This document shows, piece by piece, positions 22,941 to 38,055 of a stretch of 38,216 nucleotides of DNA. Positions within the stretch are counted from its first letter, which is position 1; every line of letters starts with the position of its first letter. The notes beneath the pieces are model-generated. The model ran no database searches. It was given only the letters and a program-made list of their open reading frames with translations, and was not told the origin of the DNA. Source of the DNA: Pedosphaera sp. (GTDB lineage: Bacteria; Verrucomicrobiota; Verrucomicrobiia; Limisphaerales; SXTU01); contig SIBB01000001.1 of NCBI GenBank assembly GCA_009695395.1, positions 1-38,216 of the forward strand. Direction: 5' to 3'. The translations under genes were made by a program, and so were the position numbers.

Positions 22941-24676
22941 GAACCTCTATGAGACATTTCAATAGCCATGTCCGGTTCCTGATTATCGCGCTGGCCATGC
23001 CAGTCCTGCTGGCCGGGGAGGTCCGTGCTCAAAAGGAAGCCGCGCCCGCACCTGCTGCCGCAAAACCCGCTGAGGTCAAAGGCGCGGACGATATCCTGCT
23101 CACCGGCGAACGCCTGTTCAATGAAGAGCGGCGCCAAATGGATGTCTCGCGCCGACTGACGGTCGTCTATCGCCGTTTTGCCTCGCTGCTGGACGACCTG
23201 CAATCCAACGAACTCAGCGAAGAAGGCGGAGCCGCGGCGCTCGTCAAGACCGCGAAAGGCGTCGAAACCCTGCGCACCGGCCGGTTGCCCGTGGCCACCG
23301 ACCATCTGCGCAAGGCGCGCGGCGACCTCGGAAAAGCCCTGCCGCACATTGATGGCGCCGACAAAGAGATCGTGGCCATCGTCGCGGACCTCAACAAGAT
23401 TATCGAGGGAGCCAGTTCCATTCTGGCCGACGACCGCCTGCTCAAGGAAATCCGCGAGATCATCAAGACCGAGGAATTCCTGCGCAAGCAGACGGCCGAG
23501 TGGGGCAAAAAACTCATCCTGAAACCCGAAGCCGGCGCCCTCGACCAGGGCCGGGTTTCGCGCGCCCAGCAAGGCGTCATTGAACGTTACGTCCAGTTTT
23601 TCGAGATGCTGACCACGGCGCGCAAGCAGGCGGTTGATCAGGAACTGGGCGCCCGTTTGGGCAAGACCGAGCAGGTTCTCGTCGAAGGGAAGCCGGACGC
23701 CAGACTGGCCGCGGCCATTGACCAGGTCACCCAGAGTAAGGCGATCGGTGCGGTGGGTGCGCAGGATCAGGCCCTCGTCATTCTGCGGAAAGCGGAGAAA
23801 ATTCTCTCGGAAGAAACCATGTCCGACCTGGTGACCGAACTGGCCCGCATCCTGGCCGCCGAAAAGGATCTCTATCAGGACACCAAACAGGCGGTGGCTC
23901 CGGCGTTTCAGGCCGAGAAGTCGCAATACGAGGCCCGCCAGATCGGGATCGGCAATTTGCTCGACAACGCCATCAAGAATTTCGCCCCCAGCGTGGCCGA
24001 AAAGCTGTTCCCGGCCGCCACGCCGCCGGCGACTCCCGCAGTGCCGACCTTCCCGACATCACCCACCTCCGCCGAAGTCAGCGCATCGCTGACCGAAGCG
24101 CACAAAGCCGTGGGTGTCGCTGTCACCGAATTGAATGCCGGTAAACAGGAGCCGGCACTTGCCGCCGAACTCGCCGTCATCGCGGCGCTCGAAAAAGCCA
24201 TCGCCCAAGTGAAAGCGGAACTCGGAGCCGAAGCGCCGCCCGTCGAGATCGGTGAACTCACCCTGGCGGATCCCGGCGATGCCAGCGAAGGAGCTGATGC
24301 AGCCGGTGAAGGCGCAGGCGCAAGTGATAGTCAAGCGGAGGGTTCCGCCGAAGGCCAGGGAAAGGGCGAGGGCAAGGGCGAGGGCAAGGGCGAGGGCGAG
24401 GGCAAGGGCGAAGGTTCAGGAAAAGGGAAAGGGAAAAAACCAGGCAGGGGGACCCCGCCCAAGTTCGCGGGCGACCCGCCGGATCTCGCGGAAAGTTACG
24501 CCAAAGGGGGGAAAACGGAAATTGACGGGCGAGGTGCGGATGTGAATCGCAAAGGTCACATGCTCGACTCGCTCTCGCGCCGCAATCGCTCGGCGGCCAT
24601 CCAAAACTACGTCCAGCAACTGCCGCCCGAATTCCGGCAACAAGTCGCCGATTACTACGAAACACTCGCCGAATGA
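22937..24676 (+). CDS. Secreted coiled-coil/low-complexity protein with a (GEGK)n tract and conserved C-terminal YYxxLA motif
   Basis: The track start at 22937 is GTG and overlaps the previous stop (GTGA). The first ATG is at 22949 and gives MRHFNSHVRFLIIALAMPVLLAGEVRAQ, a signal peptide. The body is long, helical and Ala/Glu/Lys-rich. The C-terminus is IQNYVQQLPPEFRQQVADYYETLAE. The stop overlaps the next ATG (ATGA). Confidence 0.7.
   Translation: MRTSMRHFNSHVRFLIIALAMPVLLAGEVRAQKEAAPAPAAAKPAEVKGADDILLTGERLFNEERRQMDVSRRLTVVYRRFASLLDDLQSNELSEEGGAAALVKTAKGVETLRTGRLPVATDHLRKARGDLGKALPHIDGADKEIVAIVADLNKIIEGASSILADDRLLKEIREIIKTEEFLRKQTAEWGKKLILKPEAGALDQGRVSRAQQGVIERYVQFFEMLTTARKQAVDQELGARLGKTEQVLVEGKPDARLAAAIDQVTQSKAIGAVGAQDQALVILRKAEKILSEETMSDLVTELARILAAEKDLYQDTKQAVAPAFQAEKSQYEARQIGIGNLLDNAIKNFAPSVAEKLFPAATPPATPAVPTFPTSPTSAEVSASLTEAHKAVGVAVTELNAGKQEPALAAELAVIAALEKAIAQVKAELGAEAPPVEIGELTLADPGDASEGADAAGEGAGASDSQAEGSAEGQGKGEGKGEGKGEGEGKGEGSGKGKGKKPGRGTPPKFAGDPPDLAESYAKGGKTEIDGRGADVNRKGHMLDSLSRRNRSAAIQNYVQQLPPEFRQQVADYYETLAE
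24353..24440 (+). repeat. In-frame GGC-GAG-GGC-AAG microsatellite-like tract encoding GQGKGEGKGEGKGEGEGKGEGSGKGKGKK
   Basis: I read it directly: ggccagggaaag then (ggcgagggcaag)x2, ggcgagggcgagggcaag, ggcgaaggttcaggaaaagggaaagggaaaaaa. Codon phase was checked against the gene frame. Confidence 0.85.
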
Positions 24677-25731
24677 AACATTGCCCCATCACCAAAACCC
24701 TCGTCGCAACCTTGACGGCCGCGGCTTTCGTCGCCGCCTCGGTCCAGTCGGTCCGGGCGCAGGACGAGGGCGCTGGCGAGCAAGTCGTGGGCGTGGTGCG
24801 CCTGACCCCGGAAGTCCGCACCGCCATCACCAAGGGTTTGGATTATCTCGCCAAGGAGGGCGTGCAGAAAGCCGACGGAAGCTGGGGCACCGGGAATAAT
24901 GACGTGGCGGAAACGTCCGCGGCTCTCATGGCTTTCATGCTGAAAGGCTACATCCCGGGCCGCGGTGGCCGCTACGGCGTGGTCATGGAGAACGGGATCA
25001 CCTATCTCATCAACAAAGGCAAAGCCCAACGCGGGTTTCTGGGGACTCCCAACAACCACGCCGGCATGTATGAGCACGGCCTGGCCGTCCTCGCGCTGTC
25101 TGAAGCGTGGGGCCAAAGTAAGAACCCCGCCGTGGGGACCGCCCTGCGGGCCGGCGTGGACATCATCCTCCGCGCCCAAAGCACCCTCGGTGGCTGGCGC
25201 TACTCACCCACGCCCGCCGACGCCGATCTTTCCATGACCGTCATGCAGCTTGTGGCGCTCAACTCCGCCCACGAATCCGGCATCCAGATCCCCATTGCCA
25301 CCATTGAAAAGGCCGTCAAATACGTGAAGTCCTGCCAGGAAGAAGGCAGCGGAGGGTTCAAATATATGCCGACGAGCGGCGACGTCGGCTTTGCGCGCAC
25401 CGCCGCCGGGGTGATGTCCCTCATCATGACCGGCCAGCGCAACAGCAAGGAAGCGCAGCGCGGGCTGGCTTTCCTGAAGGCTTATCCCGACAAGAAGTTC
25501 GAGAAAGGCTACCCGCGCTTCCACTACGCGCACTACTACGCCATCCAGGCCATCTATCAGTCGGGCGAAATGGACTTCCAAAAGTGGTATCCCAAGATCG
25601 CCGCCACCGTCGTCTCCATGCAGGCTGCGGATGGAAGCTGGAATGGCGAAGGCGGCCCAGCCTTTGCCACCGGCATGTCGATCCTCATCATCGGCGTGCC
25701 TTACCGCTTCCTGCCGATCTACCAGCGCTAG
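24673..25731 (+). CDS. Exported prenyltransferase/squalene-oxidase-repeat (alpha/alpha-toroid) protein
   Basis: Signal peptide MKHCPITKTLVATLTAAAFVAASVQSVRAQ. Recurrent toroid-repeat motifs: DGSWG, GGWRYSP, GGFKYMP, DGSWNGEGG. Interleaved helices include DVAETSAALMAF, SMTVMQLVAL and ARTAAGVMSL. Confidence 0.75.
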   Translation: MKHCPITKTLVATLTAAAFVAASVQSVRAQDEGAGEQVVGVVRLTPEVRTAITKGLDYLAKEGVQKADGSWGTGNNDVAETSAALMAFMLKGYIPGRGGRYGVVMENGITYLINKGKAQRGFLGTPNNHAGMYEHGLAVLALSEAWGQSKNPAVGTALRAGVDIILRAQSTLGGWRYSPTPADADLSMTVMQLVALNSAHESGIQIPIATIEKAVKYVKSCQEEGSGGFKYMPTSGDVGFARTAAGVMSLIMTGQRNSKEAQRGLAFLKAYPDKKFEKGYPRFHYAHYYAIQAIYQSGEMDFQKWYPKIAATVVSMQAADGSWNGEGGPAFATGMSILIIGVPYRFLPIYQR

Positions 25732-25798
25732 CGTTGTCTGCCAGGCAGATTGTCTGTAGCACCGAATACGGACCACCGACCAGCCCACCAACCATTCG

Positions 25799-27796
25799 AT
25801 GCCTCCCAAAACACCAGCCCTTGCCTCCCGATCGATCCAGTGGCTGCACCCTTTCCCGGTCCTTCCCCGGCTCAATCTCTTTCTGCTCGCCGCCATGCTG
25901 GCTGGCTGCGCCCTTTCCTCCGCTGCATCTGCGCCTGCTCCCGTGGGAACCGGGCGCATGCTCCAGCAACTCGAATCCGACGATTGGATCCTCCAGGCCG
26001 AGGCCCTGCACTACTTTGGGAAATACCGCGTCATGGACGGGGTCCGGGCCACCCGCGCCCTGCTGGCCAATGAAAAGGCCGCCCCGTGGATCCGCGGACG
26101 CGCCCTCGTGACCCTTTGCGCGCTCGAAAACAAAGTGGTCCCCGCCGAGTTCCAAAAATGGATGGAGCACGCCCGGCCGGAACTTCGGGCCGCCGCCGCT
26201 GAAGTGCTGGAAGTCGGGGGCGGCGACCAGGCCGCCGCATGGCTGCAAACCCTCCTCAAGGACAAGGACGACACCGTCCGCTACCAGGCCGCCGCGGCGC
26301 TCGCCCGGCGCTCGAAAGAAGCCGCGTGGGCGGTGGTGGATCCGCTCACCGCCGATGGGACCGCCGCCCCGGCCCGTCTCGTGGCCCGCACGCTCGCGTG
26401 GACCGGCACCGATGCGGCCCTCCAGCGCCTCGGGGCACTCATGGCCAAACCCGATCAGCTTTCGAAATGCCTCCAGGGCATTCGCGACATCCCATCGCCC
26501 AAACTCGTCCCGCTCATCCTCGCGGCCCGCACCGCCCTCCCGGAGGGTGAGGAGCGGCTGCACGGACTCATCCTCTCCGACCTCCAGACTCGCGACAAAA
26601 AGGATTTGGTCACCGGGCTGGGCAAATTCATGGAGGCGGGCGGCGACCAGAACATTCGCACGGCGGCGCGGATCATCACTCTGCTCGTGCCGGCACCCGA
26701 ATTGGGCGTGGTGCTGCGCACCGCCCTGACGAAGGCCACGGACACCGGAACCATCGAAGCGGGAATGATCGCCCTCGGAATCCCCGCCATCGAGCCGGTG
26801 CGGCACATCGAGTATTTCACCCAGCAACTCGGGCACGCCGATCCGTCCATCCGCGCCCTGGCCATCCGTTGCCTCGCGCACTGCGAGGGCGCGAATCTTT
26901 TCGAAATTCTCAAGCCCAAGATGGCCGATGAAAATGTTTCGGTCGTCGCTGCTGCGCTCGGGGCCCTTTTGCGCAGCCCGGCGGCGAACGCGCCGCGCGG
27001 GACGCTCGTCACCTACCTCAAGGCACCGCTCAGCAGCGCCGACAACAACGTCCGCACTCTCGCGAACGACGTGCTCGCCCATGCCGGGAGTGCCGAGGAC
27101 TACAAGCCGGCCCTGGCCACCCTCGCCAGCCTGCTCCGCGGAAAAGACGATGATCTGCGCGTTTCCGCCGCCAAGGCCCTGGGACAACTGGCCCCGGCCG
27201 GGGAGGTCGGGGACCTGGTTTCGATGCAGGGCTACCTGGCCAAATGGACGATCATTGGCACCTTCCTCAACGACGATAAGAACAGCGGATTTCAGGAGGT
27301 TTTTCCGCCGGAGAAGGCCATTGATTTCCAGGCAAAATATAAGGCCAAGTTCGTGTGGGCTGGCGTGCAGGGGGGCGTGGAGGGAAGCGACAACAAGCCC
27401 ATTGAGCGCGAGGTCGAGTGGTCCAAAGTGATCGTGGATCAGGCCGATGGCCGCCTGCTCATGGCCGCGAATCTTCCTCCGCCCGGCTCGCTGTCCATCG
27501 GCTATGCGGTCTCGGATGTGACCGTGGACAAAGCGTGCGAGGTCATCCTCACCATCGATGGCGACGACGGTTTCCGGGTCCGGCTCAACGGCGCGGTGAT
27601 CGGCGAGCAAATGGCCGTGCCCGATCCCAAGACCAGGGTCGCCGTGGCCACCTTGCCCGGCGTGAAGGTGCAGCTGAAGCAGGGCTCCAACCGCTTCTTC
27701 GTCAAATCCTGCAACATCACCGGCTCATGGTGGGTGCGCATCCGGGTCGCGGATGCCGAAGGGAACCCCGTGGACTTTCGGGCCCCCAAGCCATGA
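25799..27796 (+). CDS. HEAT-repeat lipoprotein with C-terminal jelly-roll (galactose-binding-like) domain
   Basis: Lipobox-like LLAAMLAG/C near the N-terminus. Multiple HEAT/PBS-lyase-type repeats: DKDDTVRYQAAAALAR, HADPSIRALAIRCLAH, DENVSVVAAALGALL, SADNNVRTLANDVLAH, GKDDDLRVSAAKALGQL. The C-terminal ~190 aa read WTIIGTF...IGYAVSDVTVDKACEVILTIDGDDGFRVRLNGAVIG...LKQGSNRFFVKSCNITGSWWVRIRVADAEGNPV. The stop overlaps the next ATG (ATGA). Confidence 0.75.
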   Translation: MPPKTPALASRSIQWLHPFPVLPRLNLFLLAAMLAGCALSSAASAPAPVGTGRMLQQLESDDWILQAEALHYFGKYRVMDGVRATRALLANEKAAPWIRGRALVTLCALENKVVPAEFQKWMEHARPELRAAAAEVLEVGGGDQAAAWLQTLLKDKDDTVRYQAAAALARRSKEAAWAVVDPLTADGTAAPARLVARTLAWTGTDAALQRLGALMAKPDQLSKCLQGIRDIPSPKLVPLILAARTALPEGEERLHGLILSDLQTRDKKDLVTGLGKFMEAGGDQNIRTAARIITLLVPAPELGVVLRTALTKATDTGTIEAGMIALGIPAIEPVRHIEYFTQQLGHADPSIRALAIRCLAHCEGANLFEILKPKMADENVSVVAAALGALLRSPAANAPRGTLVTYLKAPLSSADNNVRTLANDVLAHAGSAEDYKPALATLASLLRGKDDDLRVSAAKALGQLAPAGEVGDLVSMQGYLAKWTIIGTFLNDDKNSGFQEVFPPEKAIDFQAKYKAKFVWAGVQGGVEGSDNKPIEREVEWSKVIVDQADGRLLMAANLPPPGSLSIGYAVSDVTVDKACEVILTIDGDDGFRVRLNGAVIGEQMAVPDPKTRVAVATLPGVKVQLKQGSNRFFVKSCNITGSWWVRIRVADAEGNPVDFRAPKP

Positions 27797-30700
27797 GCGC
27801 GCGGGGTCACATACTAATACTTCTCTCCGTTTTGCCATGGACGCTCGCCGCCCTGGCGGAGCCGCCCCCCAAGGACCCGCGGTGGGAGCAGGCGCAGAAG
27901 GCTTACAACGAAGGTTTCTCCGACGAAGGGCACCGGCTCCTCAAAGCCCTCATCGCCGACCACCCCGGCGATGTCGATCTGGCCGCGGCCTGCTACGAGA
28001 AGATTTTTGACCGAGAATATCGGATCCTGCCAAAACATGTGGCGATCAAAATTCTGGGCGAGCCCATGCACAGTCCCTGGCACGCCACCGCCCACTACAC
28101 GGGGGTCAACTCCAATATGCAGATCCCGCCCGCCGTGGCGCGCATGATGGCGCTCGAGCGGCTCGGCGGGCTTTCCGCCCATACCGCCCTTCTCCGGACT
28201 GCCTGCGGCGCCTCGGTCGAGGGCGGCCTCAACCGGCGCGCCTATATCGAACTGGAGGAGATGCTCTCCCGCATGCAGCGCGAAAACCCTCTCGACCCGT
28301 TCTGGCGGATGATGACTGCATACGCTTTCCAGCGCATGCAGCGCCCCGAGGCCGGGAAACTCGTCGTGGAACTCCGGCGGGATGTCGATCTCGACCATCC
28401 TGACCCCGGAGTGCGCAGTGACTGGATGGTGGCTGCCAGGATGTTCGAAGAGGGCTTCCCAGCAGGCGCCAATGTGAGGGCTGCCGTGCCGGAAGGAAGT
28501 CCGCTCCTTCTGCTGGCACCTGTCAATCCCGCCGATCCCGCCGACCCGTGGCGCATGATCGTGGATCGCTCCCCAAAAGATATTCCCGGCGAGGTGGACC
28601 GACTCATTGCGCTCGCTTCCGGTACCAGGGATTTACTGACGTGGGTGGATACGGAGGGCGGTGGAATTCATCCCACCCGCGCTCTCGATCTCCATCTGCT
28701 CAGCAAACCCTCCCCCGAACTCGACCCCCTGCGCAAGGCGCAGGAAAAGGTGTTCTCCCCCGAAGCCCAGGCCGCCATCCGCACCGAGGCGGACATCCTC
28801 AGAGTGAGCCGACGCTACGCCTGGGCGCGCCCCGCCCAGGTGCTCCAGATGAGAATCGCGAATGAGGCACTCTGGGACGGCCGCTTCGATTCTGCATGGC
28901 GCAGCTTTCAGGAAGTGTTCCTCCACACCTCTGACCCCGCGCTCCGCGAAGCCGCCCAAGTCGGCATCTGGACCGCCTTGGGCCTCTCCGGCGGCGCAGC
29001 GGAAGTGCTCGCACAACCCGCCGCCTTCGAACCCGCCAAGACCTACCCGTGGATGGGGCGCCTGATCAAGGGCTCCGAAATTCGCGCCGCCCTCCAGGCC
29101 ATGGTCCGACCCGCGCCGCCGGTCGTCGCTCCGTCGCTCCAGGATGTCCGCCCGCATCTCCTGAACCTCCCGCCGGTTGCTCCGTGGGTGATGAATACCC
29201 ACGCGGGCGGGGACTTTTCCATCGATCTCCAGGTGGCCGGCAATAAAGTTCTGGCCAGCGGGCGCAACCTCATCGCCGCCTACGACGCCGCAAAACCCGG
29301 CGCCCCGCTGTGGGCTCACGTGCAACAGTTCAGCAGCCCGCCCCATAATAATCGATCACCCTACCCCGGCTACTTCCGCGGACTAATCGAGGACGGGACA
29401 CTTTTTACCCGCTGGGGCAGGTCCGAACTGCCGAGTGGTCTGACCGCTTTTAGCCTCGCCACCGGTGATCCGCTGTGGACGGCGTTCGACGCGATACCCA
29501 AGGGGTTCAGCGGGGAAAATCTGCGGCAACAAAACCTCGTCCCAACCTGCGATCCGGTCCGGGCCGACGGCAGACTGTTCTACATGCACAGGTGCACCAT
29601 CGTCGACGCGGCAGACGGAGGCCGACCCAACTTAAGCCTCGTTTGCTTCGACCCCGGCGCCGCTCGGCCTCGTTGGGCGGCCCCGATTTTTGAGCCCACC
29701 CAAGCGGAACGCCCGCACTTCGACCGCAACTACACATACGCCTACGGCAACGCCGTCACCGTCCACCGTGGAGCCGTTTACAGTTGCACCGGCATCGGGT
29801 ATCTCATCCGCTCCGACGTGCGCGACGGCCGCGTCGAATGGACCCACAAGTATGCCGTGCGCGGTGGCGGAAGCGAGAGTCTCGGCAGCGCCCCCATCAT
29901 TGCCGGCAGCAACGTCATCTTCCTGCCCCGAAATGGGGAACGCGTCATCGCCCTCGACCAGCGCACGGGCTTTCTCGCATGGGAGAATCTCATGATTCGC
30001 GCCTTCGAAGTGCTCGGCCTCTGGCAGGACACCCTCGTGGTGCGCGGGCCCAACCACCTCGCGGGGATCGATGTCGCCACCGGGAACGCCCGCTGGATTC
30101 GGAACCTGACCCAGCGCGCCCTCACCCGCGGCCAGCTCATCGCCGATTCCGTTTACCTCGGGCAGCTCGACGCCCTGCAGCGGTTCGACGCCCGCACCGG
30201 CGAGCTGCTCGAAAGCCGGCCCTGGGCGCTCCAGCCCGAGCGCGCCCTCAGTTTCAACATTTCCGGCCAGGACCTTTACATCGCCACGGACCGGCCCGCC
30301 GCCGACCCCCACCAAAAAGTGAGCCAGCCTCCCGGCCCGGAAGTGGCCTCGTCCACGCAGCCGCTCAAGCTGCCTCTCAAACCCGCGTGGTCGCTCATGC
30401 GCCCGGGTGCCTCCCTCCTGCTCCCGCCCGCCGGAGTCAACCCCGGCACGGCCATTCTCCTGGGCGACGGCATGCTCGAGTGCCTCGAAGTCAGCGAACG
30501 CGGTGGCATCCGCTGGCGCCGCTTCCTTGATCTCAAGATCAACCAGCTCGTCATCCGCTACATCGGCAAGAGCGGAGAGATCCTCATGCTCATGGAACAG
30601 GGCGAGTCCCCCGAGAATCCCCCCCGGGCCCTCGCCCTCGACACCAAGACCGGCGCGACTCTCTGGGACACGACCGTCCCTCCCTGGCGCGACCCACCAC

Positions 30701-31563
30701 CCTCGTTTTGTGGCTCCCTGCTGATCTTCGCCAGCCACGCCCACCACTTGGGCGGCGGGGCGACCGCCATCGACCTCACCACGGGCAAACAACTTTGGCG
30801 GCGCTACCTTCGCAGCCCCGCCCCTCCGGTAGCCAAAGGGGACGAATCTCGTTTACTGCTTCTCGGCGGCCTCTGGATGCCGAAACCCGCCCGCGTGACC
30901 CTCAACGCGCAGACCGGCCAGACCATCGCGGACTCCCCGGAAAAATCCGCATTGCTACCCATGCTTTACACGGTCCACGGCAGAAATGGCCCCAGCGTTT
31001 ATCTCATCCCTCCGGTGGGAGACCCAACGGTCTTCCAGCCACAGGCCGTCATTGTGGACCACATCCCCGGGACTGGCGCTCCCTACTACCTGATCCGGCC
31101 CCGCGACGGTACTGACAAGATCCCCGAGGGCGTCTATCGCGCCGACGACCCATCCTACTTCTGCAGACTCCCGAGCGCTGACGTCCTGTTCGATGGCGAC
31201 TACGCCATCACCATCCATGGCAAATTCGCGGTCACTGACCTCAAAGCCAAACGCCTCTTGCCGCTCCCTGCGACGGACGAAAAGGCGGCCATCAACCGAC
31301 CGGGACTTCTCTGCCGCATCGGCCCCGATCGTTTGCTCAAACTCGTTGACCATGGCAGCGCTAAGAATGTCGTCTTCCTCATTGATCTTGCGAGCGGGGC
31401 CGTGACCGAGGGGAAACTCGAATTGCCGAGTCAGGACGGCCCCATTAACCTGTCGAACTACACCAACCTCACCCCTCAAAACCGGCCGTTTCTTCCGACC
31501 TTCGACCGCGTTTTCCTGACCTACGACACCACCACCATTACCGCTTGGATCGCGGCTCCCTAG
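27793..31563 (+). CDS. Giant secreted protein, paralog 1 (1256 aa): helical N-terminal region plus PQQ/BamB-like beta-propeller repeats plus unassigned C-terminal module
   Basis: The track ORF opens at 27418. I place the start at the ATG at 27793 (MSARGHILILLSVLPWTLAALAEPP, a signal peptide), which forms an ATGA overlap with the HEAT gene stop. Recurrent D/A-x-x-T-G-x-x-x-W propeller motifs: LATGDPLWT, RDGRVEWTHKY, QRTGFLAWEN, VATGNARWIRN, ARTGELLESRPW, TKTGATLWDT, LTTGKQLWRR. Confidence 0.8.
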   Translation: MSARGHILILLSVLPWTLAALAEPPPKDPRWEQAQKAYNEGFSDEGHRLLKALIADHPGDVDLAAACYEKIFDREYRILPKHVAIKILGEPMHSPWHATAHYTGVNSNMQIPPAVARMMALERLGGLSAHTALLRTACGASVEGGLNRRAYIELEEMLSRMQRENPLDPFWRMMTAYAFQRMQRPEAGKLVVELRRDVDLDHPDPGVRSDWMVAARMFEEGFPAGANVRAAVPEGSPLLLLAPVNPADPADPWRMIVDRSPKDIPGEVDRLIALASGTRDLLTWVDTEGGGIHPTRALDLHLLSKPSPELDPLRKAQEKVFSPEAQAAIRTEADILRVSRRYAWARPAQVLQMRIANEALWDGRFDSAWRSFQEVFLHTSDPALREAAQVGIWTALGLSGGAAEVLAQPAAFEPAKTYPWMGRLIKGSEIRAALQAMVRPAPPVVAPSLQDVRPHLLNLPPVAPWVMNTHAGGDFSIDLQVAGNKVLASGRNLIAAYDAAKPGAPLWAHVQQFSSPPHNNRSPYPGYFRGLIEDGTLFTRWGRSELPSGLTAFSLATGDPLWTAFDAIPKGFSGENLRQQNLVPTCDPVRADGRLFYMHRCTIVDAADGGRPNLSLVCFDPGAARPRWAAPIFEPTQAERPHFDRNYTYAYGNAVTVHRGAVYSCTGIGYLIRSDVRDGRVEWTHKYAVRGGGSESLGSAPIIAGSNVIFLPRNGERVIALDQRTGFLAWENLMIRAFEVLGLWQDTLVVRGPNHLAGIDVATGNARWIRNLTQRALTRGQLIADSVYLGQLDALQRFDARTGELLESRPWALQPERALSFNISGQDLYIATDRPAADPHQKVSQPPGPEVASSTQPLKLPLKPAWSLMRPGASLLLPPAGVNPGTAILLGDGMLECLEVSERGGIRWRRFLDLKINQLVIRYIGKSGEILMLMEQGESPENPPRALALDTKTGATLWDTTVPPWRDPPPSFCGSLLIFASHAHHLGGGATAIDLTTGKQLWRRYLRSPAPPVAKGDESRLLLLGGLWMPKPARVTLNAQTGQTIADSPEKSALLPMLYTVHGRNGPSVYLIPPVGDPTVFQPQAVIVDHIPGTGAPYYLIRPRDGTDKIPEGVYRADDPSYFCRLPSADVLFDGDYAITIHGKFAVTDLKAKRLLPLPATDEKAAINRPGLLCRIGPDRLLKLVDHGSAKNVVFLIDLASGAVTEGKLELPSQDGPINLSNYTNLTPQNRPFLPTFDRVFLTYDTTTITAWIAAP

Positions 31564-31567
31564 CAGC

Positions 31568-34500
31568 ATGAAACGTCCGATCCTGATTCTCACCGCCCTT
31601 TTCCTCGGAGCGCTCGTTGCGCCTGCGGCCGCACCCGCCGACGACCCTCGCTGGGCAGACGCGCTCAAGGCTTACTCGCAAGGCCTCCGTGAAGTGGGGC
31701 ACCGCCTCCTCTCCGCCCTTGCCGCGGAGCATCCCGGCGATCTCGACCTGGCCGCGGCGTGCTACGAGCGAATTCTCAAGAACGTAAGCCTCCCCTCCCC
31801 GAAAGCTCCGACGGTCACCGACAACCCCTGGATCACCCTCGCCACGGAACGGCTCCTCGCCCTCGAACGCCTCGGCGCCCACTCTGCGAATACAGATCTC
31901 ATCCGTTCCGCCGCCTCCGTCGAGAGTCGGCTCGCTGTCGCCAGAAGCCATTTCCTTGACGCGTTCGAGACGATCACCCGCCTGCGCGCCGAAAATCCTC
32001 ACGACCTTTTCTGGCGCATGACAGAGGTCCGCATCCTCCGCAGCATGGGGCTGCCGGAAGCCGACGCACGCATCGCGGAACTAAAGCAGGACTACGATCC
32101 CGACCATTCCGACCCCGGCAAGCGCGCCGAGTGGGAATGGATCGCCACGGAAATAAATCCTTCCGGCAATCCTCCCTTGGAGGCCCGTCCGGCGTGGGCC
32201 CGGCAGCAAGTGCGCGTGCCCGACCCCGTCCCCGTCCCTCCGGAGGGTAGCCCAGTCAGCCTGCTCGCCCCCGAAGATCCCGATGACCGCTGGCGCGTCA
32301 TCAATAATCCCTCCCCAAAAGGAGGCGTCGGTGCATTGGATCGCCTCCTCGGTTACACCTACGCCGCCGCCGAGGGCGTGCCGTGGCGGGCCGGCCGCGG
32401 TTTGCTCGATTCCAGCCGCGCGCTCGACCTGCACCTGCTCAGTAAACCCGCTCCCGAACTCGAAGCCCTGCGCCAGGAGCAGGAAGCGCAATTCGCCCGC
32501 CATGCGCAGGCTGCCGGCCGCACCGGGGCGGGCATCCTCGCGGCGAGCCGCCGCTATGCCTGGTCGCGATCGGCGCAGACGCTCCTGATAAAGTTCGCCA
32601 GCGAGGCGCTCTGGGACGGGCGCTTCGAATCCGCGGGGCGCAGCTTTCACGACGTGCTCCTTCACGCCTCTGACCCCGCGCTCCGCGAGGCCGCCCAGAC
32701 CGGCATCTGGACCGCCCTGGCTCTCTCCGGAGGGGCGGCGGAAGTGCTCGCGCAACCCGCCGCCTTCGAGCCCGGCAAGACCTACCCGTGGATGGGACGC
32801 CTGACCAAAGGCTCGGAAATTCGCGCCGCGCTTCAGGCCACACTCAGGCCCGCGCCGCCGGTTGTCGCGCCTTCTCTTCAGACCCTGCGCCCGCATGTCC
32901 TGAACCTCCCGCCGGTGGCTCCATGGCCATCGGGTGAATCCTCGGGGGGCTTCGGCGTCGATCTCCAAGTGGCCGGCAACAGAGTCGTGGCCAGCGCGCG
33001 CAACGTCGTCGCCGTCTACGACGCCGCCAAACCCGGCGCCCCGCTGTGGGCTCACGTGCAGCACCGCTCCGCCGCCCCTCCTCAGCACCACTGGCCCGGC
33101 TACTACCGCGGCCTCATTGAGGACGGCACGATTTTCTCACGCTGGAGCGTGACCGAACTGCCCAGCGGGCTGGCCGCCTTTGACCTCGCCAGCGGCGATC
33201 CGCTTTGGACTGCCCTGAGTGAAAATCCCTGGAACGATCGCGGGGGACCGCGGCCCAAGCGTTCCAGCGATGGAAAAAAGCAGCCGCTGCGTTTCTCGGT
33301 GCCCATGGGCGACCCGGTTCGGGCCGATGGCCACCTCTATTACCTGCAATGGGACTCCGCGCATGACCTCCACTCCAAACAAGGCACGCACCTGAACCTC
33401 GTCTGTTTCGACCCCAGCACCGGTCAGCCCCGCTGGACGGCTTCTCTCACCGATCACCGATTTGTGGGAGATTTCCGCAGTCCCACAACCGCCATCTACG
33501 GCAACTCCGTCACGGTCCATCGCGGAGCGGTTTACAGTTGCAACAACTCCGGCCAGATCTTCCGCTCCGACGTGCGCGACGGCCGAATCGAATGGGCTCA
33601 TAACTATCGCCACCACCCCACCAGCGCCGAGTTTCTCGGCAGCGCCCCCATCATCGCCGGCAGCAGTGTGATCTTCCTGCCCCGCGATTCGGGAGTCGCC
33701 GTCGCTCTTGATCAGCGCACCGGCTTTCTCGTCTGGGAAAATCCCTTCATCCGCGGCGCCGAGGCGCTCGGCATCTGGCAGGACACCCTCGTGGTGCGCG
33801 GTGTCGCCACTCTCGCCGGGCTCGATCTCGCCACCGGCAAGACCCGCTGGTCCCGGAATCTGACCGGGCGCACCCTCGACCGCTCCCAACTCATCGCGGA
33901 CTCCATCTACCTCGGCGGGGCCGACGCCCTCGTGCGGCTCGACGCCCGCACCGGCGAGTCGCTCGAAAGCCGCCCCTGGGCGCTCCAGTCCGAACGCGCC
34001 CTCACTTTCACCATCTCCGGCCAGGATCTTTACATCGTAACGGACCGGCCCACCGACGACCCTCGCCAAAAAGTGGGCCAACCCCTCGGCCCCGAGTTGG
34101 CCTCGTCCGCCGCCCCGCTCAAGCTGCCCATGCAGCGCGCCTGGTCGCTCTCGCGTCCCGATGCCACTGTCGCGCTCCCGCCCCCCGGCGTCAGCCCCGG
34201 CAGCGCCTACGTCATCAGCGACGGCCTCATCGAGTGCCTCGATGTGAGCCAGCGCGGCACCATCCGCTGGCGGCGCTTCCTCAATGCCAGCAGCCCCACT
34301 TTGCACTTCGTCGGCGACACGCTCCTCCTGCGGGAAAAGGAAGTCCCCCACCTCCCGTTTGGCCGCGTCCTGGCCATCGACTCCAAGACCGGAGTGACGC
34401 TCTGGGAAGCGCCCGTGCCCGTCAACCACCAGCACGTCTTCCACTTCGGCACCCGCATCCTTTTTCACGACGGACGCGAAAAACTCGTCGCCCTCGACCT

Positions 34501-35791
34501 CGCCACCGGCCAGCGGGCCTGGCAGGCCACGCTGGTGCCGGCCCATGCCCAGAATCCATACTGGGACGGCACGCGCCTGCATCTTTTTCGCGCCCCCGCC
34601 GCGGGCAATCTCGAGCACTTTACCTTCAACCCCGCCACCGGCGACACCGTCGCGCATCATGAGATCGACACGAGGCCGGAGGGTCAATCGGGTGCGAACG
34701 TCCGCCTGATCCCCGGCGGTGGCTACGAAGTCCGCTTCGCACCCACCTCGGCCCGTTACTTTCGCCTCACCACGCTCTCCAGCTCCGGTGGCACCGGTGA
34801 CTACGCTTCCGCCGCGGAGTTTTACCTGCTCGGCCCCGATCACAAGCGCCTGCCCCGCGACGGCTGGACCGCGACCGCCGATCACGAACCCAACGCCGGC
34901 CTCAGAGCCAAGCCCCGCAACGCCATCGACGGCGACCTCAATACATGGTGGCACTCCCAGTGGATGAATGGCCAGACGCCGCACCCGCACTATTTCACCA
35001 TCGACCTCGGCGCCGCCCAGACCCTTGGCGGCCTTCACTACCTGCCGGCGAAAATCATCAACAACAATGGCATGATCGCCGATTACGAACTCCACGTGAG
35101 TCAGGACGGCAAGGCATGGGGCGCGCCGGTTTCCAAGGGCAGCGTTACCGAAGCCGTCAGGGTCCGGATCCCCGAGCAAGCGGCATCCCTCCCCGCCTTC
35201 TTTGAGGCGCGCCGCTTTCTGCGGGGTGTGGCATCCGTCTATCGCTACGACGCCGCCGGCAAGGCCGTCGCCGTCTATGAAACTGGCAGCCTCCAGCGCG
35301 ACGCCGGACCCTACAGCCTCCTCTCCTTCCGCGACAAACCCGCCGGCCCGGAAACCCTCGTCGTGCGCCGCGCCGACGATCCATCCTACGTCTTCCCGCT
35401 CCCGGTTCCGAATGACCGCGCAAACCACTTCCAATTCGACGGCGACCACGCCATCTCCCAGCAAGGCAGACTCGAAATCATCGACTTTAAAGCCAAGCGC
35501 CTGCTCACCATCCCCGGCGACGAAAAATCGCCCATCCACCAAGCGGGATTCCTCTGCCGCATCGGCCCCGATCGTCTGCTCAAAATCGTCGTCCGCGACA
35601 ACAAGCAGCACGCCTTCAGCATCGACCTCCGGAGCGGGGAAGTCACCGAGGGGGCCTTCGAAAACCAGAGCGAGCCCATCGCCGCGAGCCGCCTCCTCCA
35701 GTCCGGCCACAAATCCCACTACCTGACCTTCGACCGCACCTTCCTCTCCTACGACAACACCACCCTCACCGCCTGGGTTGCCGCGCCATAG
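31568..35791 (+). CDS. Giant secreted protein, paralog 2 (1407 aa): same architecture as paralog 1 plus an inserted F5/8 type C (discoidin) module
   Basis: Signal peptide MKRPILILTALFLGALVAPAAAPA. It is collinear with paralog 1 from the N-terminus (DPRWADALKAYSQG...HPGDLDLAAACYERI) to the C-terminus (...FDRTFLSYDNTTLTAWVAAP). It starts 4 nt after the paralog 1 stop. Confidence 0.85.
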   Translation: MKRPILILTALFLGALVAPAAAPADDPRWADALKAYSQGLREVGHRLLSALAAEHPGDLDLAAACYERILKNVSLPSPKAPTVTDNPWITLATERLLALERLGAHSANTDLIRSAASVESRLAVARSHFLDAFETITRLRAENPHDLFWRMTEVRILRSMGLPEADARIAELKQDYDPDHSDPGKRAEWEWIATEINPSGNPPLEARPAWARQQVRVPDPVPVPPEGSPVSLLAPEDPDDRWRVINNPSPKGGVGALDRLLGYTYAAAEGVPWRAGRGLLDSSRALDLHLLSKPAPELEALRQEQEAQFARHAQAAGRTGAGILAASRRYAWSRSAQTLLIKFASEALWDGRFESAGRSFHDVLLHASDPALREAAQTGIWTALALSGGAAEVLAQPAAFEPGKTYPWMGRLTKGSEIRAALQATLRPAPPVVAPSLQTLRPHVLNLPPVAPWPSGESSGGFGVDLQVAGNRVVASARNVVAVYDAAKPGAPLWAHVQHRSAAPPQHHWPGYYRGLIEDGTIFSRWSVTELPSGLAAFDLASGDPLWTALSENPWNDRGGPRPKRSSDGKKQPLRFSVPMGDPVRADGHLYYLQWDSAHDLHSKQGTHLNLVCFDPSTGQPRWTASLTDHRFVGDFRSPTTAIYGNSVTVHRGAVYSCNNSGQIFRSDVRDGRIEWAHNYRHHPTSAEFLGSAPIIAGSSVIFLPRDSGVAVALDQRTGFLVWENPFIRGAEALGIWQDTLVVRGVATLAGLDLATGKTRWSRNLTGRTLDRSQLIADSIYLGGADALVRLDARTGESLESRPWALQSERALTFTISGQDLYIVTDRPTDDPRQKVGQPLGPELASSAAPLKLPMQRAWSLSRPDATVALPPPGVSPGSAYVISDGLIECLDVSQRGTIRWRRFLNASSPTLHFVGDTLLLREKEVPHLPFGRVLAIDSKTGVTLWEAPVPVNHQHVFHFGTRILFHDGREKLVALDLATGQRAWQATLVPAHAQNPYWDGTRLHLFRAPAAGNLEHFTFNPATGDTVAHHEIDTRPEGQSGANVRLIPGGGYEVRFAPTSARYFRLTTLSSSGGTGDYASAAEFYLLGPDHKRLPRDGWTATADHEPNAGLRAKPRNAIDGDLNTWWHSQWMNGQTPHPHYFTIDLGAAQTLGGLHYLPAKIINNNGMIADYELHVSQDGKAWGAPVSKGSVTEAVRVRIPEQAASLPAFFEARRFLRGVASVYRYDAAGKAVAVYETGSLQRDAGPYSLLSFRDKPAGPETLVVRRADDPSYVFPLPVPNDRANHFQFDGDHAISQQGRLEIIDFKAKRLLTIPGDEKSPIHQAGFLCRIGPDRLLKIVVRDNKQHAFSIDLRSGEVTEGAFENQSEPIAASRLLQSGHKSHYLTFDRTFLSYDNTTLTAWVAAP
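34700..35160 (+). other. F5/8 type C (discoidin)-like module inserted in paralog 2
   Basis: WTATADHEPNAGLRAKPRNAIDGDLNTWWHSQW...PHPHYFTIDLGAAQTLGGLHYLPAKIINNNGMIADYELHVSQDGKAWG carries the NAIDGD-x-x-T-x-W, 'F.IDLG' and 'Y...VS.DG..W' signatures. It is preceded by a partial discoidin-tail-like segment, ARYFRLTTLSSSGGTGDYASAAEFYLLG. Paralog 1 has no counterpart at the equivalent position. Confidence 0.7.
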
Positions 35792-35860: not shown

Positions 35861-36379
35861 TCAACGGCCGCCGCCATTTCGACGTCGGGGAATTACGGAG
35901 GGAACGTCGTAGGCGCTGCTGAGTTTGAGGGTCAGATCTTTTTCCTCTTTCACGTCCTTGCCTCGGCGGCTGGAGGCCGCTGCTATTTCCTGCGGGTAGG
36001 CGTCTTCGAGGAGCAAGCGGTTGAGCTTGATCAGGGCGTCGCCCTCTCGGTTTTCCCTCAGCAGCCGCCTGGTCTCGGTGCGCAGACGGATGCCCGCAAA
36101 GCGGTTCGTCTCATGCACCAACGGGCCGCGGATTATTTTGTTCAGATCCGCCACCAGGAGTTTTTTCAGTTCGGCGGAGTCTGGACCTGAGTCTTCATAT
36201 TTCGCGAGAGACTGCTTGGTGAGGTCGGACAACTTGCTGTTGAGGTGGGCGGCCAGCTTGTTGTTGTTGTCTTTTAACGAGCTGGCCAACTGTGGAAACT
36301 TGACCAGGTCTGCGGCGACGAATTTCGGGGAAACGCGGCTGACCCTGAGCTTCACCTCGTCGCCTGCCATCAAATCCAT
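35861..36379 (-). CDS. Hypothetical protein or gene fragment (172 aa), no family recognised
   Basis: Only the C-terminal third of track ORF 35861..37312 looks protein-like: MDLMAGDEVKLRVSRVSPKFVAADLVKFPQLASSLKDNNNKLAAHLNSKLSDLTKQSLAKYEDSGPDSAELKKLL...LLEDAYPQEI. It has balanced K/E/D/L/N composition and lower GC. The rest of the ORF is antisense to other gene fragments and is Arg/Gly/His-rich. The ATGs at 36379 and 36370 may be fortuitous if the gene is 5'-truncated. Confidence 0.4.
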   Translation of the reverse strand: MDLMAGDEVKLRVSRVSPKFVAADLVKFPQLASSLKDNNNKLAAHLNSKLSDLTKQSLAKYEDSGPDSAELKKLLVADLNKIIRGPLVHETNRFAGIRLRTETRRLLRENREGDALIKLNRLLLEDAYPQEIAAASSRRGKDVKEEKDLTLKLSSAYDVPSVIPRRRNGGGR

Positions 36380-36403
36380 CTCGGCCGGCGCTTCGACCGG
36401 CCC

Positions 36404-36850
36404 GTGATGAACATCGGCTTTTCCGGCAACGGTCGGATGGACACGGCCGTCGGCGATCTGCTTGCGGAGATTGATGCCGCTGTTTACGTGATCGATTGCC
36501 TCCCAAACATGGGGCCGGCCGACGTGGCGGCGAAGTGCGTGCCGCTGGTGAAACAACTGCGCGCCGCGCGGCCGAACACGCCCATCGTGCTGGTGGAAGA
36601 CCGGCGATTCTCGAACTCGTGGATCACGCCGCTCAAGGAGAAGTTCCACGACGACAACCACGCGGCATTGCGCGCGGCTTACGAGCAATTGAAGAAGGAC
36701 GGCGTCACCAAGTTGCACTACATCGGCGGCGACCATCTCTACGGCGACGACAGCGAAGGCGCGACCGACGCCTCGCACGCCAGCGATCTCGGCTTCATGC
36801 GGCAGGCGGACATCTTCGAGCCGGTGATTCGCGCGGCACTGAAACCGTGA
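36404..36850 (+). pseudogene. 5'-truncated SGNH/GDSL-type hydrolase (C-terminal ~148 codons only)
   Basis: NIGFSGNGRMD...LAEIDAAVYVIDCLPNM...RAARPNTPIVLVED...TDASHASDLGF matches the middle-to-C-terminal part of SGNH esterases, including the catalytic D-x-x-H near the end. The N-terminal block carrying the GDS(L) serine is absent. Similarity begins abruptly at about 36404, next to the end of the oppositely oriented ORF. Confidence 0.6.
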
Positions 36851-36877
36851 GAAATCCCGTGCGCCGTGCGAAGTGAA

Positions 36878-37138
36878 ATGAAATCTTGGGGCAAACAATC
36901 GTTCCGCTCGTGTCTTGCGGTCGTGGGATTCTGGACAACCCTCACCGCACACGCGGCCATCCAGACGCCAGCGGATGAGCAGACCACCGCATTCATCAAG
37001 GAACATTGCCTTCCCTGTCACGGCGCGGAGAAAACGAAGGGCGATTTGCGGCTCGACCAGTTGGACACGGATTTCTTCAAGCCCAGCACCTTCGAGCGGT
37101 GGCGCGAGGTGGTGGTGCGCGTGCAGTCGGGCGAAATG
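36878..37138 (+). pseudogene. N-terminal stub (~87 codons) of a DUF1592/PSCyt3-type CxxCH protein, paralogous to 9464..11884
   Basis: MKSWGKQSFRSCLAVVGFWTTLTAHAA (signal peptide), then FIKEHCLPCHGAEKTKGDLRLDQLDTDFFKPSTFERWREVVVRVQSGEM. The intact gene reads FFKEHCLRCHGPEKAKGDLRLDQLDTDFAKPSTFDRWREISPRAQLGEM. The nucleotide core 37035-37112 aligns by eye to the reverse complement of about 11615-11692 with only about 6 mismatches. Similarity stops at GEM, and an out-of-context tail leads to a stop at 37186. Confidence 0.75.
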
Positions 37139-37208
37139 GTATTCTTGAAATTGTCCGCGCGCGGATGCGGCGCGGATGTAAGATAACACAGCTCCGCCGG
37201 ATGCTCGC
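37131..37208 (-). pseudogene. ~75-nt antisense scrap of a DUF1501 gene, paralogous to 8185..9456
   Basis: The plus strand 37133-37208 (atggtattcttgaaattgtccgcgcgcggatgcggcgcggatgtaagataacacagctccgccggatgctcgc) aligns by eye to plus strand 9101-9176 (atggtgttcttgaaattgtcggcgcgcggatgcggcgcggcggtgaggtaacacaactcggccggatgcccgc). The minus-strand translation HPAELCYLTSAPHPRADNFKNTIS compares with HPAELCYLTAAPHPRADNFKNTIS in the intact gene. Confidence 0.7.
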
Positions 37209-37287
37209 GGGATGAAAAGGCTTGACACCAGCATCCGGCCCGACAACTTTGGATTTGAATCACCCGTCGCGCCGCTTTTTTGCCGCC

Positions 37288-38055
37288 ATGAACATCGCCG
37301 AATTCTCCCCATCCCGTCCGGCGTCCATCCCCATCGTGCCGCGGCGGGGCAGTCGCGCCGCGGGTTTCACGCTTATCGAGCTGTTGGTGGTCATTGCCAT
37401 CATCGGCATTTTGGCCAGCATGCTCTTGCCAGCTTTGGGCAAGGCCAAGGAGAAGGGCCGGCGGGCCAAATGCGTCTCGAATCTGCAGCAGCAGGGCATG
37501 GCCAATGCGGTGTATCAGGACGACTTCGACAGCCGGTTCCCGTCCGCCAAAGACTACCTCCAAACCTACTATTCCTACGGCGGCAAGAACGGCACGGAAT
37601 ACGTCGTGACCAGCCGGTTGCTCAACCCCTACATCGGTATCACCGACCCGGTGACCACCACCACGGAGGGAGCGGCGCTGGCGTTCCGGTGCCCAAGCGA
37701 TAACGGAGCGACGCGGGCCGCATGGCCGGCGGATCGCAAGCCCACGCTTTTCGACACCTTCGGGAGCAGTTATTTCTACAACAGCGCCGCGAACAACAAC
37801 GACGGCACCAAGGGCCTGTTCCAAAAGCTCGCCCCGCAGGTGAACAACCCGGCGAAGGTGATTCTGGCGAACGATTTCTCCTTCGGCGTCCATGGGTTGA
37901 ACAGCGCCGTCTTCCAGTATTCCTACTGGCATGATGGCAGGTTGGGCTTTGGCAGCGTGCTGTTCGTGGACTCGCATGCGGACTACCTCCAGGCGACGCA
38001 AAACGCCCCCGACTTTCAGCACGGGGCGAACTGGACGTTTGTTTACAGCGATTGA
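37288..38055 (+). CDS. Prepilin-type N-terminal cleavage/methylation domain protein (type II secretion pseudopilin-like, DUF1559-like)
   Basis: The track ORF starts at 37222; I prefer the ATG at 37288. The classic class III signal is ...[46 protein letters not shown], with G at -1, F at +1 and E at +5. The C-terminal [21 protein letters not shown] resembles the H-x9-DG-type tail of PVC pseudopilin-like proteins. Confidence 0.85.

Follow-up and report, generated by a model that had tools for sequence, protein, structure and literature searches.

Tandem propeller genes in the window

The present study concerns two tandem genes, referred to herein as A and B, in a stretch of 38,216 nucleotides (nt) from Pedosphaera sp. 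(contig SIBB01000001.1), which is the whole of the DNA analysed and is called the window below. They are the last two of eleven tightly packed genes on the plus strand. An earlier note, made by reading this stretch alone, had described two head-to-tail genes of 1256 and 1407 amino acids (aa) with very uneven mutual conservation, and had proposed either a recent duplication with rapid diversification of selected surfaces or an old duplication homogenised locally by gene conversion. Both open reading frames (ORFs) are present on the plus strand as described; the start codon of B lies 4 nt beyond the stop codon of A, and the ATG of A overlaps the stop codon of the preceding HEAT-repeat gene as ATGA. 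The two genes contain the following features.

27793-31563, plus strand: gene A (ORF and translation), 1256 aa, operon gene 10; signal peptide, alpha-solenoid, junction module, propeller 1, proline-rich linker and propeller 2, without a CBM32 domain
27793-27858, plus strand: predicted signal peptide of A, MSARGHILILLSVLPWTLAALA, a hydrophobic N-terminus with the "first-position" type of 5' end
28669-29196, plus strand: junction module of A (aa ~293-468), comprising the last solenoid helices, a hairpin plus helix, a proline-rich strap and the first propeller strand
28927-29187, plus strand: conserved block of A (aa 379-465), inside the junction module
30178-30345, plus strand: second low-divergence tract of A (aa 796-851), the last propeller 1 blades and the start of the linker
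30676-31122, plus strand: most diverged part of A (aa ~961-1110), in propeller 2, corresponding to the CBM32 site of B
31568-35791, plus strand: gene B (ORF and translation), 1407 aa, operon gene 11 and the last; laid out as A, with an additional F5/8 type C (CBM32-like) domain within propeller 2; the putative ancestral type
31568-31633, plus strand: predicted signal peptide of B, MKRPILILTALFLGALVAPAAA, a hydrophobic N-terminus with the "second-position" type of 5' end
32408-32935, plus strand: junction module of B (aa ~281-456), the counterpart of 28669-29196
32666-32926, plus strand: conserved block of B (aa 367-453), inside the junction module of B
34700-35170, plus strand: F5/8 type C (discoidin/CBM32-like) jelly roll of B, inserted in propeller 2 and absent from A

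Both signal peptides are predicted to be cleavable and to have no lipobox. The assignment of the repeats to PQQ/BamB-like propellers, which the earlier note had made from their D-x-x-T-G-x-x-x-W periodicity, was borne out by Pfam and by Foldseek: PQQ_2 (PF13360) matched A with 80.1 bits and B with 113.5 bits (cut-off 27.6), the motif D-x-x-[TS]-G-x-x-x-W occurs four times in A and six times in B, and a model of A matched BamB structures with a probability of 1.0 and template-modelling scores up to 0.64-0.66 when normalised to BamB. The quinoprotein family PF01011 remained below its cut-off of 26.7 (13.5 bits in A, 25.0 bits in B) and covered short partial stretches only. The best Foldseek matches of the whole model were the tandem propellers of EMC1 and Utp21 (E 8e-15). 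The matched propellers serve as scaffolds and not as enzymes, and those of A and B appear to be of the same type.

The AlphaFold2 model of A covers aa 23-1222 and was built from a 28-sequence alignment, with a predicted local distance difference test score (pLDDT) of 75 and a predicted template-modelling score of 0.74. It places an alpha-solenoid (aa ~23-407) before a hairpin plus helix and a proline-rich strap, followed by propeller 1 (aa ~453-832), a proline-rich linker and propeller 2 (aa ~874 to the end). The conserved block extends from the last helix of the solenoid through the junction to the first strand of the propeller and is modelled with confidence (module pLDDT 76-93). The tract at aa 796-851 forms the last blades of propeller 1 and may be in contact with the conserved block through closure of the propeller by its first strand. 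A search with the N-terminal domain retrieved only 113 relatives from 1.84 billion representatives, many of which match just aa ~292-468, which suggests that the junction is a discrete conserved module.

The earlier note had regarded A and B as collinear from the signal peptide to the last residues. BLASTP aligned 1133 residues at 51% identity and the C-terminal 220 residues at 43%. The collinearity extends over the full length and is interrupted only by a block of approximately 150-200 aa that is present in B alone. The region around aa 1000-1150, which had been called barely alignable, does align poorly, and the cause is a difference in domain content: F5_F8_type_C (PF00754) matched B with 58 bits at aa 1111-1201 (cut-off 28.2), while Pfam found no such match in A. 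This domain of B has sequence matches in the PDB to the N-domain of galactose oxidase, a sialidase CBM32 and the C-domain of a beta-galactosidase (E ~1e-22 to 1e-24). In an AlphaFold2 model of B aa 851-1407 (pLDDT 76), blades precede and follow the jelly roll, which indicates that CBM32 is an insertion inside propeller 2; the matching stretch of A is short and of low confidence, with a low pLDDT at aa 1048-1088.

Ancestry, copy number and hybrid genes

A protein search returned 8 orthologs of A (P0001-P0008; 73-99% identity, 1252-1257 aa), 7 orthologs of B (P0009-P0015; 74-94% identity to B) and 13 distant proteins (P0016-P0028; 34-47%), all of which were B-type with F5_F8_type_C. A genome scan added 54 loci, labelled with L numbers below, mostly from Roseibacillus/Akkermansiaceae-type metagenome-assembled genomes (MAGs) and some from Planctomycetota MAGs. 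In more than 20 syntenic loci outside the clade of the window, the propeller gene that ends the operon is always single and B-type. Since these outgroups are single-copy and B-type, the tandem pair is best read as a clade-specific duplication, with A as the derived copy that lost the lectin domain; the duplication is placed in one freshwater Verrucomicrobiota clade. Identity to the outgroup is 44% for A and 48% for B.

Near-orthologous copies of the operon, with 76-92% protein identity, were present in L001, L002 (CAMAUV010000001.1) and L003 (CAMDJP010000008.1); the record labels "Akkermansia muciniphila" (L002, L003) and "Chthoniobacter sp." (L001) are unlikely to be reliable taxonomy. Roseibacillus-type genomes (L026-L045, e.g., L036 9950-13954 and L027 10061-14152) carry one or two extra stand-alone paralogs, with approximately 35% identity to B, outside any MoxR operon. 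In L060, a 1570-aa PQQ_2 protein is encoded nearby on the opposite strand.

The copy number among related genomes, a comparison that the earlier note had recommended, ranges from one to three, and hybrid genes are present. L004 has only one gene, which is B-type and whose B is sister to that of L002, a genome that also has A. Three genes in the order A1-A2-B were found in L061 (5095-13992) and L062 (6575-15229). In L001 (4767-9508), L056 and L057, the contig breaks approximately 310-325 codons into a second A-like gene; over the last 55-99 nt before the break, from codon 295 on, the sequence matches the first A exactly. These three loci are likewise counted as A1-A2-B. In or beside the junction module, A1 and A2 share an exact run of 140 nt in L062 (codon 392) and one of 99 nt in L001 (codon 295).

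The gene directly after the HEAT gene begins ATGAGCGCGCGGGGTCA... (MSARGH...) in every genome but L061, including the B-type gene of L004, and every second or third gene, including the A2 copies, begins ATGAA.....CCGATCCTGAT... (MK.PILIL...). The exception, L061, has 194 nt between the HEAT gene and its first A copy, which carries the MK.PIL-type 5' end. Considering that the A-type 5' end is found on the B-type gene of L004 and the B-type 5' end on A2, the 5' ends follow position and not gene type. The gene of L004 is accordingly a hybrid of an A-type 5' end and a B body, and A2 of a B-type 5' end and an A body; both hybrid junctions fall within the same ~15-nt stretch of the signal-peptide region. 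Unequal crossing-over between A and B would be expected to yield just these two hybrids as its reciprocal products, and together with the changes in copy number the hybrids amount to a direct demonstration of recombination between the copies. Orthologs also appear to be mosaic between genomes: identity of gene A of the window to that of L055 alternates by region (0.95/0.84/0.98/0.79/0.94), and compared with A2 of L061 its C-terminal third is 92-98% identical and its N-terminal half 65-93%.

An assembly or binning artefact, i.e., collapsed or chimeric repeats in a metagenome-derived window, needs to be considered here because many contigs of relatives end within the second or third copy (L001, L056, L057, L058, L061, L062). 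A check of contig ends showed that those of L061 and L062 do not match other copies, and that exact repeats account only for the breaks in L001, L056 and L057. Exact matches between A and B in the window reach 32 nt at most, which leaves nothing for an assembler to collapse. Independent assemblies (L002, L003 and L055; P0001 has 99% identity to A) again show A followed by B, both with intact ORFs, and the orthology is consistent. We therefore regard an artefact as extremely unlikely.

Constraint and exchange between A and B

The uneven conservation described in the earlier note was confirmed: identity in 30-aa windows varies from 0.20 to 0.93, with a maximum at A aa 377-437, and the quoted block SDPALREAAQ...LPPVAPW occupies A aa 379-465 and B aa 367-453. 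The nucleotide ranges that had been compared for this block (28921-29170 and 32651-32900) are 9 nt out of register and 33% identical; compared in register (28921-29170 and 32660-32909), they are 85.2% identical. The near identity at many synonymous positions that had been noted for the block is correct in the literal sense but does not set the block apart: at 4-fold sites, identity in aa 361-450 is 0.67, against 0.64 for the whole gene. Identity at codon positions 1, 2 and 3 of the block is 0.91, 0.93 and 0.72, and the same codon is used at 71% of its identical residues, at 66% gene-wide and at 44-46% as expected from codon usage. The nonsynonymous divergence (dN) estimated by the Nei-Gojobori method (NG86) rises 13-fold, from 0.07 in the block to 0.89 in aa 961-1110, with 0.41-0.89 in variable regions. 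At the nucleotide level, direct repeats comprise D1 (28670-28969 and 32409-32708, 79%) and D3 (87%). Constraint on RNA was rejected as a cause of the block; no Rfam family and no tRNA were found anywhere in the window.

The earlier note had named uniform synonymous divergence (dS) along the pair as evidence against conversion tracts. NG86 dS ranges from 0.30 to 1.11 by region, i.e., it varies 2-3-fold; it is 0.30-0.50 in aa 301-450, 651-851 and 852-960 and 0.81-1.11 in aa 1-300, 451-650 and 961-1110. Within the window pair this heterogeneity is not significant (4-fold identity over seven regions, chi-square p=0.083), and there is no tract with dS~0 between A and B of the window, so that no recent conversion took place in this pair. 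The mosaic is mostly a pattern of dN as judged from these values.

The same regional dS values are the starting point for a different explanation, according to which the pair stems from an old duplication and owes its similar block or blocks mainly to gene conversion. The true age of the A/B split would then be the dS of ~1.0-1.4 of aa 1-300, 451-650 and 961-1110, and the junction, perhaps with aa 651-900, would have been homogenised later, in one or several conversion events before or during the radiation of the clade. In agreement with this, the A-B difference at 4-fold sites is 0.48 [0.42-0.56] in aa 1-300 versus 0.32 [0.26-0.39] in the block. The best argument for it is that the block evolves fast relative to outgroups. 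However, the window has no low-dS tract, silent identity in the block equals the gene average, and the high dS values come from gapped regions of 25-45% aa identity in which alignment error is likely to inflate them. We rejected NG86 dS of 1.0-1.4 in poorly conserved regions as the age of the duplication because alignment error at this identity remains a likely cause. Furthermore, codon bias is stronger in conserved parts and lifts chance silent identity to 0.51-0.55.

Further evidence on exchange was obtained from A and B of the window, L002, L003, L055 and L001 combined with L005, together with extra A or B copies and outgroups. In neighbor-joining trees, reciprocal monophyly of A and B received 91-100% bootstrap support in all regions but two. 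B monophyly fell to 15% in aa 361-465 and 23% in aa 801-880, where A grouped with a B subgroup (B1) at 47 and 64%, respectively, as old conversion would predict; within the block, nt identity of the B1 copies to A (0.82-0.87) is no lower than to B2 copies (0.77-0.80). All-site patterns x, y and z number 11, 5 and 3 in aa 361-440 versus 81:487:65 gene-wide. Thirteen fixed A/B differences accompany 47 shared polymorphisms in aa 301-450, versus 527 and 205 elsewhere, and 25-36 fixed differences occur per 90 sites in the region of aa 961-1110.

Since purifying selection alone removes fixed replacement differences, these tests were repeated on silent sites. The silent-site topology (A|B versus B2|rest) did not distinguish the block from the rest (p=0.64), a result that stands against old conversion. 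Fixed silent differences, which are rare throughout the gene (1/30 in the block versus 17/174 elsewhere, p=0.48), point the same way but were set aside as a test of low power because silent sites turn over within each paralog group. The ratio of shared to fixed silent sites, 12:1 in aa 301-450 versus 22:17 elsewhere (p=0.021), indicates exchange, as does covariation between the paralogs of a genome; both would also suit old conversion. Where both paralogs are polymorphic, pairing them by their actual genome scored best of 24 (four genomes) or 120 (five genomes) permutations in aa 301-465 (p=0.008-0.04), with no such excess outside this region, and at codon 441 (Ala/Val) the paralogs covary in five of five genomes. 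Block identity itself shows no same-genome excess: A and B of L002 share 0.76, less than the 0.81 between A of L002 and B of the window.

A home-made GENECONV-like permutation detected fragments of 30-50 nt (p<=0.0005) at codons 380-395 in L055 and 501-511 in the window, which would also suit old conversion, although its null ignores regional constraint. We discarded a diagnostic-site test according to which A of the window carries B states in the block (8/19 versus 64/623, p=0.0005), since A of L002 does the same and these are derived states of the L003/L058/L001 subclade. As a separate observation, the window genome is the only one with Leu (CTG) in both paralogs at A codon 424 (29062-29064) and B codon 412 (32801-32803); every other A and nearly every other B, including those of the closest relative, L055, has Pro (CCG) there. 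The shared Leu codon is flanked by mismatches within 7-11 nt and may represent either micro-conversion or parallel change.

The second low-divergence tract, aa 796-851, contains a 72-site gap without fixed differences, and its A-B difference at 4-fold sites (0.22) is about the same as that within B (0.24). The dS of this tract is very low among A orthologs (0.09-0.14, compared with 0.2-0.5 in other regions) and normal among B orthologs (0.36-0.58). Such a pattern would fit the spread of a single A allele of the tract from lineage to lineage.

Taken together, our reading of these tests is that exchange between the copies is weak, of short tract, mostly old and confined to the junction module, where it would lie atop strong constraint. 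We consider old conversion as the main cause of the similar segments to be rather unlikely. Of the two histories offered by the earlier note, duplication with rapid diversification of selected parts fits best, and local gene conversion appears to be a minor contributor at most.

Regarding selection, the ratio of dN to dS (omega) of A between the window and L003 or L002 is 0.57 or 0.35, that of B is 0.30 in both, and five other operon genes give 0.13-0.35 in the same genome comparisons. A1/A2 pairs have an omega of 0.63-0.77, and up to ~1.1 in aa 881-1256; when other A-type pairs are included, omega over the whole gene is 0.5-0.8, that of the junction is 0.3-0.6, and parts of propeller 2 (aa 881-1256) show 1.0-1.25. 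A thus emerges from these comparisons as the derived, faster-evolving copy, and omega near 1 in its propeller 2 may reflect either relaxed constraint or some positive selection.

The earlier note had seen in such patterns the signature of ligand, phage or host interfaces under diversifying pressure. In its full form, this explanation invokes positive diversifying selection at an external interface (a ligand, phage receptor, or host or prey surface), with the array as a cassette system that generates variability. A-type genes exceed all others of the operon in omega, which in some pairs climbs to 1.0-1.25 in aa 881-1256; this would be in line with such selection, as would the copy number of one to three with hybrid genes, the mosaic alleles between genomes (A of the window versus A of L055 or A2 of L061) and the lectin-like domain of B. 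On the other hand, omega stays below 1 for the whole gene in all comparisons and for nearly all regions, the regional values near 1 fit relaxed constraint equally well, and B and the single-copy outgroup genes remain in strict synteny across two phyla. A reading as a defense system was rejected because PADLOC found nothing but generic HEAT-repeat similarity. Neither diversity-generating retroelement (DGR)-like elements nor other repeats or RNA features were seen in the window. The comparisons give no sign of an arms race with a phage or host, and we regard diversifying selection as very unlikely to explain the pair; the corresponding claim of the earlier note is without support.

The explanation that we consider probable is that A and B arose by tandem duplication of the gene that ends the operon, and that their mosaic is due mainly to uneven constraint and the loss of CBM32, with limited exchange. 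A B-type terminal gene of an envelope operon of the MoxR-DUF58-BatA/VWA type, found across the Planctomycetes-Verrucomicrobia-Chlamydiae (PVC) bacteria, would have been duplicated in one clade. The upstream copy, A, would then have lost CBM32 and diverged fast in its solenoid surface, some blades and propeller 2, while strong purifying selection preserved the junction module (aa ~293-468) and the last part of propeller 1 in both copies, so that the mosaic would mainly be a map of constraint. Unequal crossing-over in the signal-peptide region would shift the copy number between one, two and three, and short, infrequent exchanges would occur within the junction module, confined to it because it is the only part similar enough to recombine.

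Several points weigh against this explanation. Silent identity rises with the local identity of the proteins (rho 0.19, p=1e-4), and in simulations the dS estimators were unbiased by omega, which together make some real dS heterogeneity likely; the stronger codon bias of conserved parts explains part of the correlation. The junction block has an identity of 0.39-0.44 to the outgroup, though 0.82-0.87 between A and B; thus, pure constraint needs a clade-specific gain of constraint, for which old conversion is simpler. The neighbor-joining trees were built on Jukes-Cantor distances from 5-7 MAG-derived genomes, and the pairing of L001 with L005 as one genome depends on binning. The functional part, set out below, is read off domain content and gene order only.

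The operon and its counterparts in known systems

The eleven genes span 12618-35791, and the G+C content is 61-69% across most of the window. According to ORF, Pfam and NCBIfam scans and topology prediction, the operon encodes the following proteins ahead of A and B.

12618-35791, plus strand: the eleven tightly packed genes of the operon
Within 12618-27796, plus strand: gene 1, MoxR (Pfam AAA_3, 203.5 bits)
Within 12618-27796, plus strand: gene 2, DUF58 (Pfam, 145.9 bits)
14812-16674, plus strand: gene 3, 620-aa exported protein without a family match (Pfam/NCBIfam scans, topology)
16679-18886, plus strand: gene 4, BatA_N-VWA-CARDB membrane protein (BatA 47.3 bits, VWA_2, CARDB, DUF7408; TIGR02226 59.4 bits)
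Within 12618-27796, plus strand: gene 5, GATase1-like membrane protein
Within 12618-27796, plus strand: gene 6, DUF4175 protein
22937-24676, plus strand: gene 7, 579-aa exported protein without a family match (Pfam/NCBIfam scans, topology)
24673-25731, plus strand: gene 8, alpha/alpha-toroid protein (prenyltransferase/SQHop-like), 352 aa
Ending at 27796, plus strand: gene 9, HEAT-repeat lipoprotein-like protein, 665 aa, with a lipobox-like LAGC; adjoins gene A

Topology prediction places MoxR and DUF58 in the cytoplasm and three proteins in the membrane, the latter with VWA or other domains in the periplasm; besides A and B, four proteins have predicted signal peptides. When the operon proteins of the window were mapped onto the loci of relatives, the order BatA/VWA, GATase1-like, DUF4175, 579-aa protein, toroid, HEAT and propeller protein was retained in more than 20 loci of Roseibacillus/Akkermansiaceae-type (Verrucomicrobiota) and Planctomycetota MAGs. 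In the searchable literature, we found nothing specific on this protein family or operon in PVC bacteria.

Regarding the surroundings of the operon, a minus-strand cluster upstream (1996-11884) encodes an SGL/NHL plus leucine-rich repeat protein, DUF1549/DUF1553, a sulfatase, DUF1552 and a PSCyt1/PSD cytochrome-like protein, i.e., a sulfatase together with signature families of Planctomycetes and Verrucomicrobia (PSD1/PSCyt2, PSD2-5/PSCyt1/PSCyt3 and DUF1552). The divergent intergenic region that follows (11885-12617, 730 nt) is the sole G+C dip of the window (0.53). Downstream, a 483-aa ORF on the minus strand (35861-37312), convergent with B, has no match to Pfam, NCBIfam or another family. 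The toroid gene (24673-25731 in the window, 6882-7937 in L003) has a dS of 0.63, and its neighbors 0.20-0.26, which suggests allelic replacement through recombination between lineages. In the marine relative L059, a sulfatase fused to an F5/8 type C domain (14247-16181) directly follows the propeller-protein gene, and this fusion hints that the lectin-type domain of the neighborhood is linked to the handling of sulfated glycans.

As to function, we tentatively propose that the operon builds an envelope complex, in which B would be a Sec-exported distal scaffold of the periplasm or envelope, anchored through its conserved junction. The junction may dock on shared partners, such as the translationally coupled HEAT lipoprotein or the toroid protein, and the propellers and CBM32 of B would bind a glycan-bearing ligand. 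A would then be an alternative, CBM-less adaptor that uses the same docking site with a different head. A bolder version, which we consider unlikely, regards the terminal gene of a PVC-specific MoxR/VWA envelope machine as an adaptor cassette of variable copy number: unequal crossing-over would take place at a fixed point in the signal-peptide region, the docking module, kept by all copies, would occasionally be homogenised, and the outward-facing propeller 2 region would lose its lectin domain and evolve at an omega close to 1. If this version were true, the organism would swap or multiply ligand-recognition heads on a common chassis.

Bat (Bacteroides aerotolerance) operons of Bacteroidota and spirochaetes (PMC3557215, PMC5700661, PMC11834572) resemble the operon of the window in the order of their head, namely, MoxR AAA_3, DUF58 and a BatA_N double-transmembrane protein with VWA. 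They differ in that the window operon has no detected BatB-E-type TPR/SH3 proteins, the Pfam scan having found no TPR or SH3 family match among the eleven operon proteins, and its tail instead consists of GATase1-like, DUF4175, two exported, toroid, HEAT and propeller proteins. The function of Bat operons is a long-standing unknown. The more promising lead is the uncharacterised 11-gene PVC operon that ends in a giant solenoid, double-propeller, CBM32 protein; the junction module (aa ~293-468) and the lectin domain offer concrete handles on the function of Bat-type MoxR operons for interaction and ligand work.

Beta-propeller MoxR-vWA ternary conflict systems, reported from Planctomycetes and Verrucomicrobia, join MoxR and vWA to a third component that contains helical repeats and beta-propellers, and act near the membrane; their vWA component has a C-terminal beta-propeller of ~4 blades, and the P-loop GXXXTAKS of their MoxR is frequent, but not universal (Kaur, Burroughs, Iyer, Aravind 2020, PMC7159879). 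The MoxR of the window also matches Pfam bpMoxR with 45 bits. In contrast to these systems, AAA_3 surpasses bpMoxR by 158 bits, the Walker A motif is the classical GVPGLAKT, the vWA protein (16679-18886) has no propeller match in the Pfam scan, and DUF58 and BatA are present. Two further candidates were rejected: the YebA-type MoxR-vWA-transglutaminase system (PMC3495828), since the window operon has no transglutaminase-like protein, and a link to the mucin utilisation loci of Akkermansia, for which the papers cover other, unrelated genes (the Amuc_1099-1102 pilus locus and the Sus-like MUL1).

Among single proteins, BamB (YfgL), the PQQ_2-type eight-bladed lipoprotein of the beta-barrel assembly machinery (BAM) complex, is comparable in that both propellers of A and B match PQQ_2 and the BamB fold, export is predicted and there is no sign of catalysis, which suggests a role as scaffolds between proteins. 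However, BamB is a lipoprotein of ~390 aa with one propeller, whereas A and B have two propellers behind a 400-aa alpha-solenoid, CBM32 in B and a Sec signal without a lipobox, and their genes lie in a MoxR/VWA operon and not with bam genes. The luminal tandem beta-propellers of EMC1 and the tandem WD domains of Utp21 likewise consist of two consecutive propellers and serve as scaffolds in large complexes; at 10-12% identity, this is a structural analogy only, with eukaryotic proteins of unrelated pathways.

Bacterial paralogs are known to undergo partial concerted evolution through gene conversion or unequal crossing-over, as in tufA/tufB, and the classic cases keep the paralogs nearly identical. 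A and B share with these cases an exchange limited to the most similar segment, shared polymorphisms and hybrids at changes in copy number, and differ from them in that homogenisation is weak and, in the window pair, old (block dS ~0.5). Duplication, domain loss, uneven constraint and limited recombination between copies are all processes of known kinds, which would largely explain the feature; the pair appears to be a clean, but ordinary case of tandem paralogs, in which one copy loses a domain and speeds up, while recombination remains limited to the best-conserved segment.

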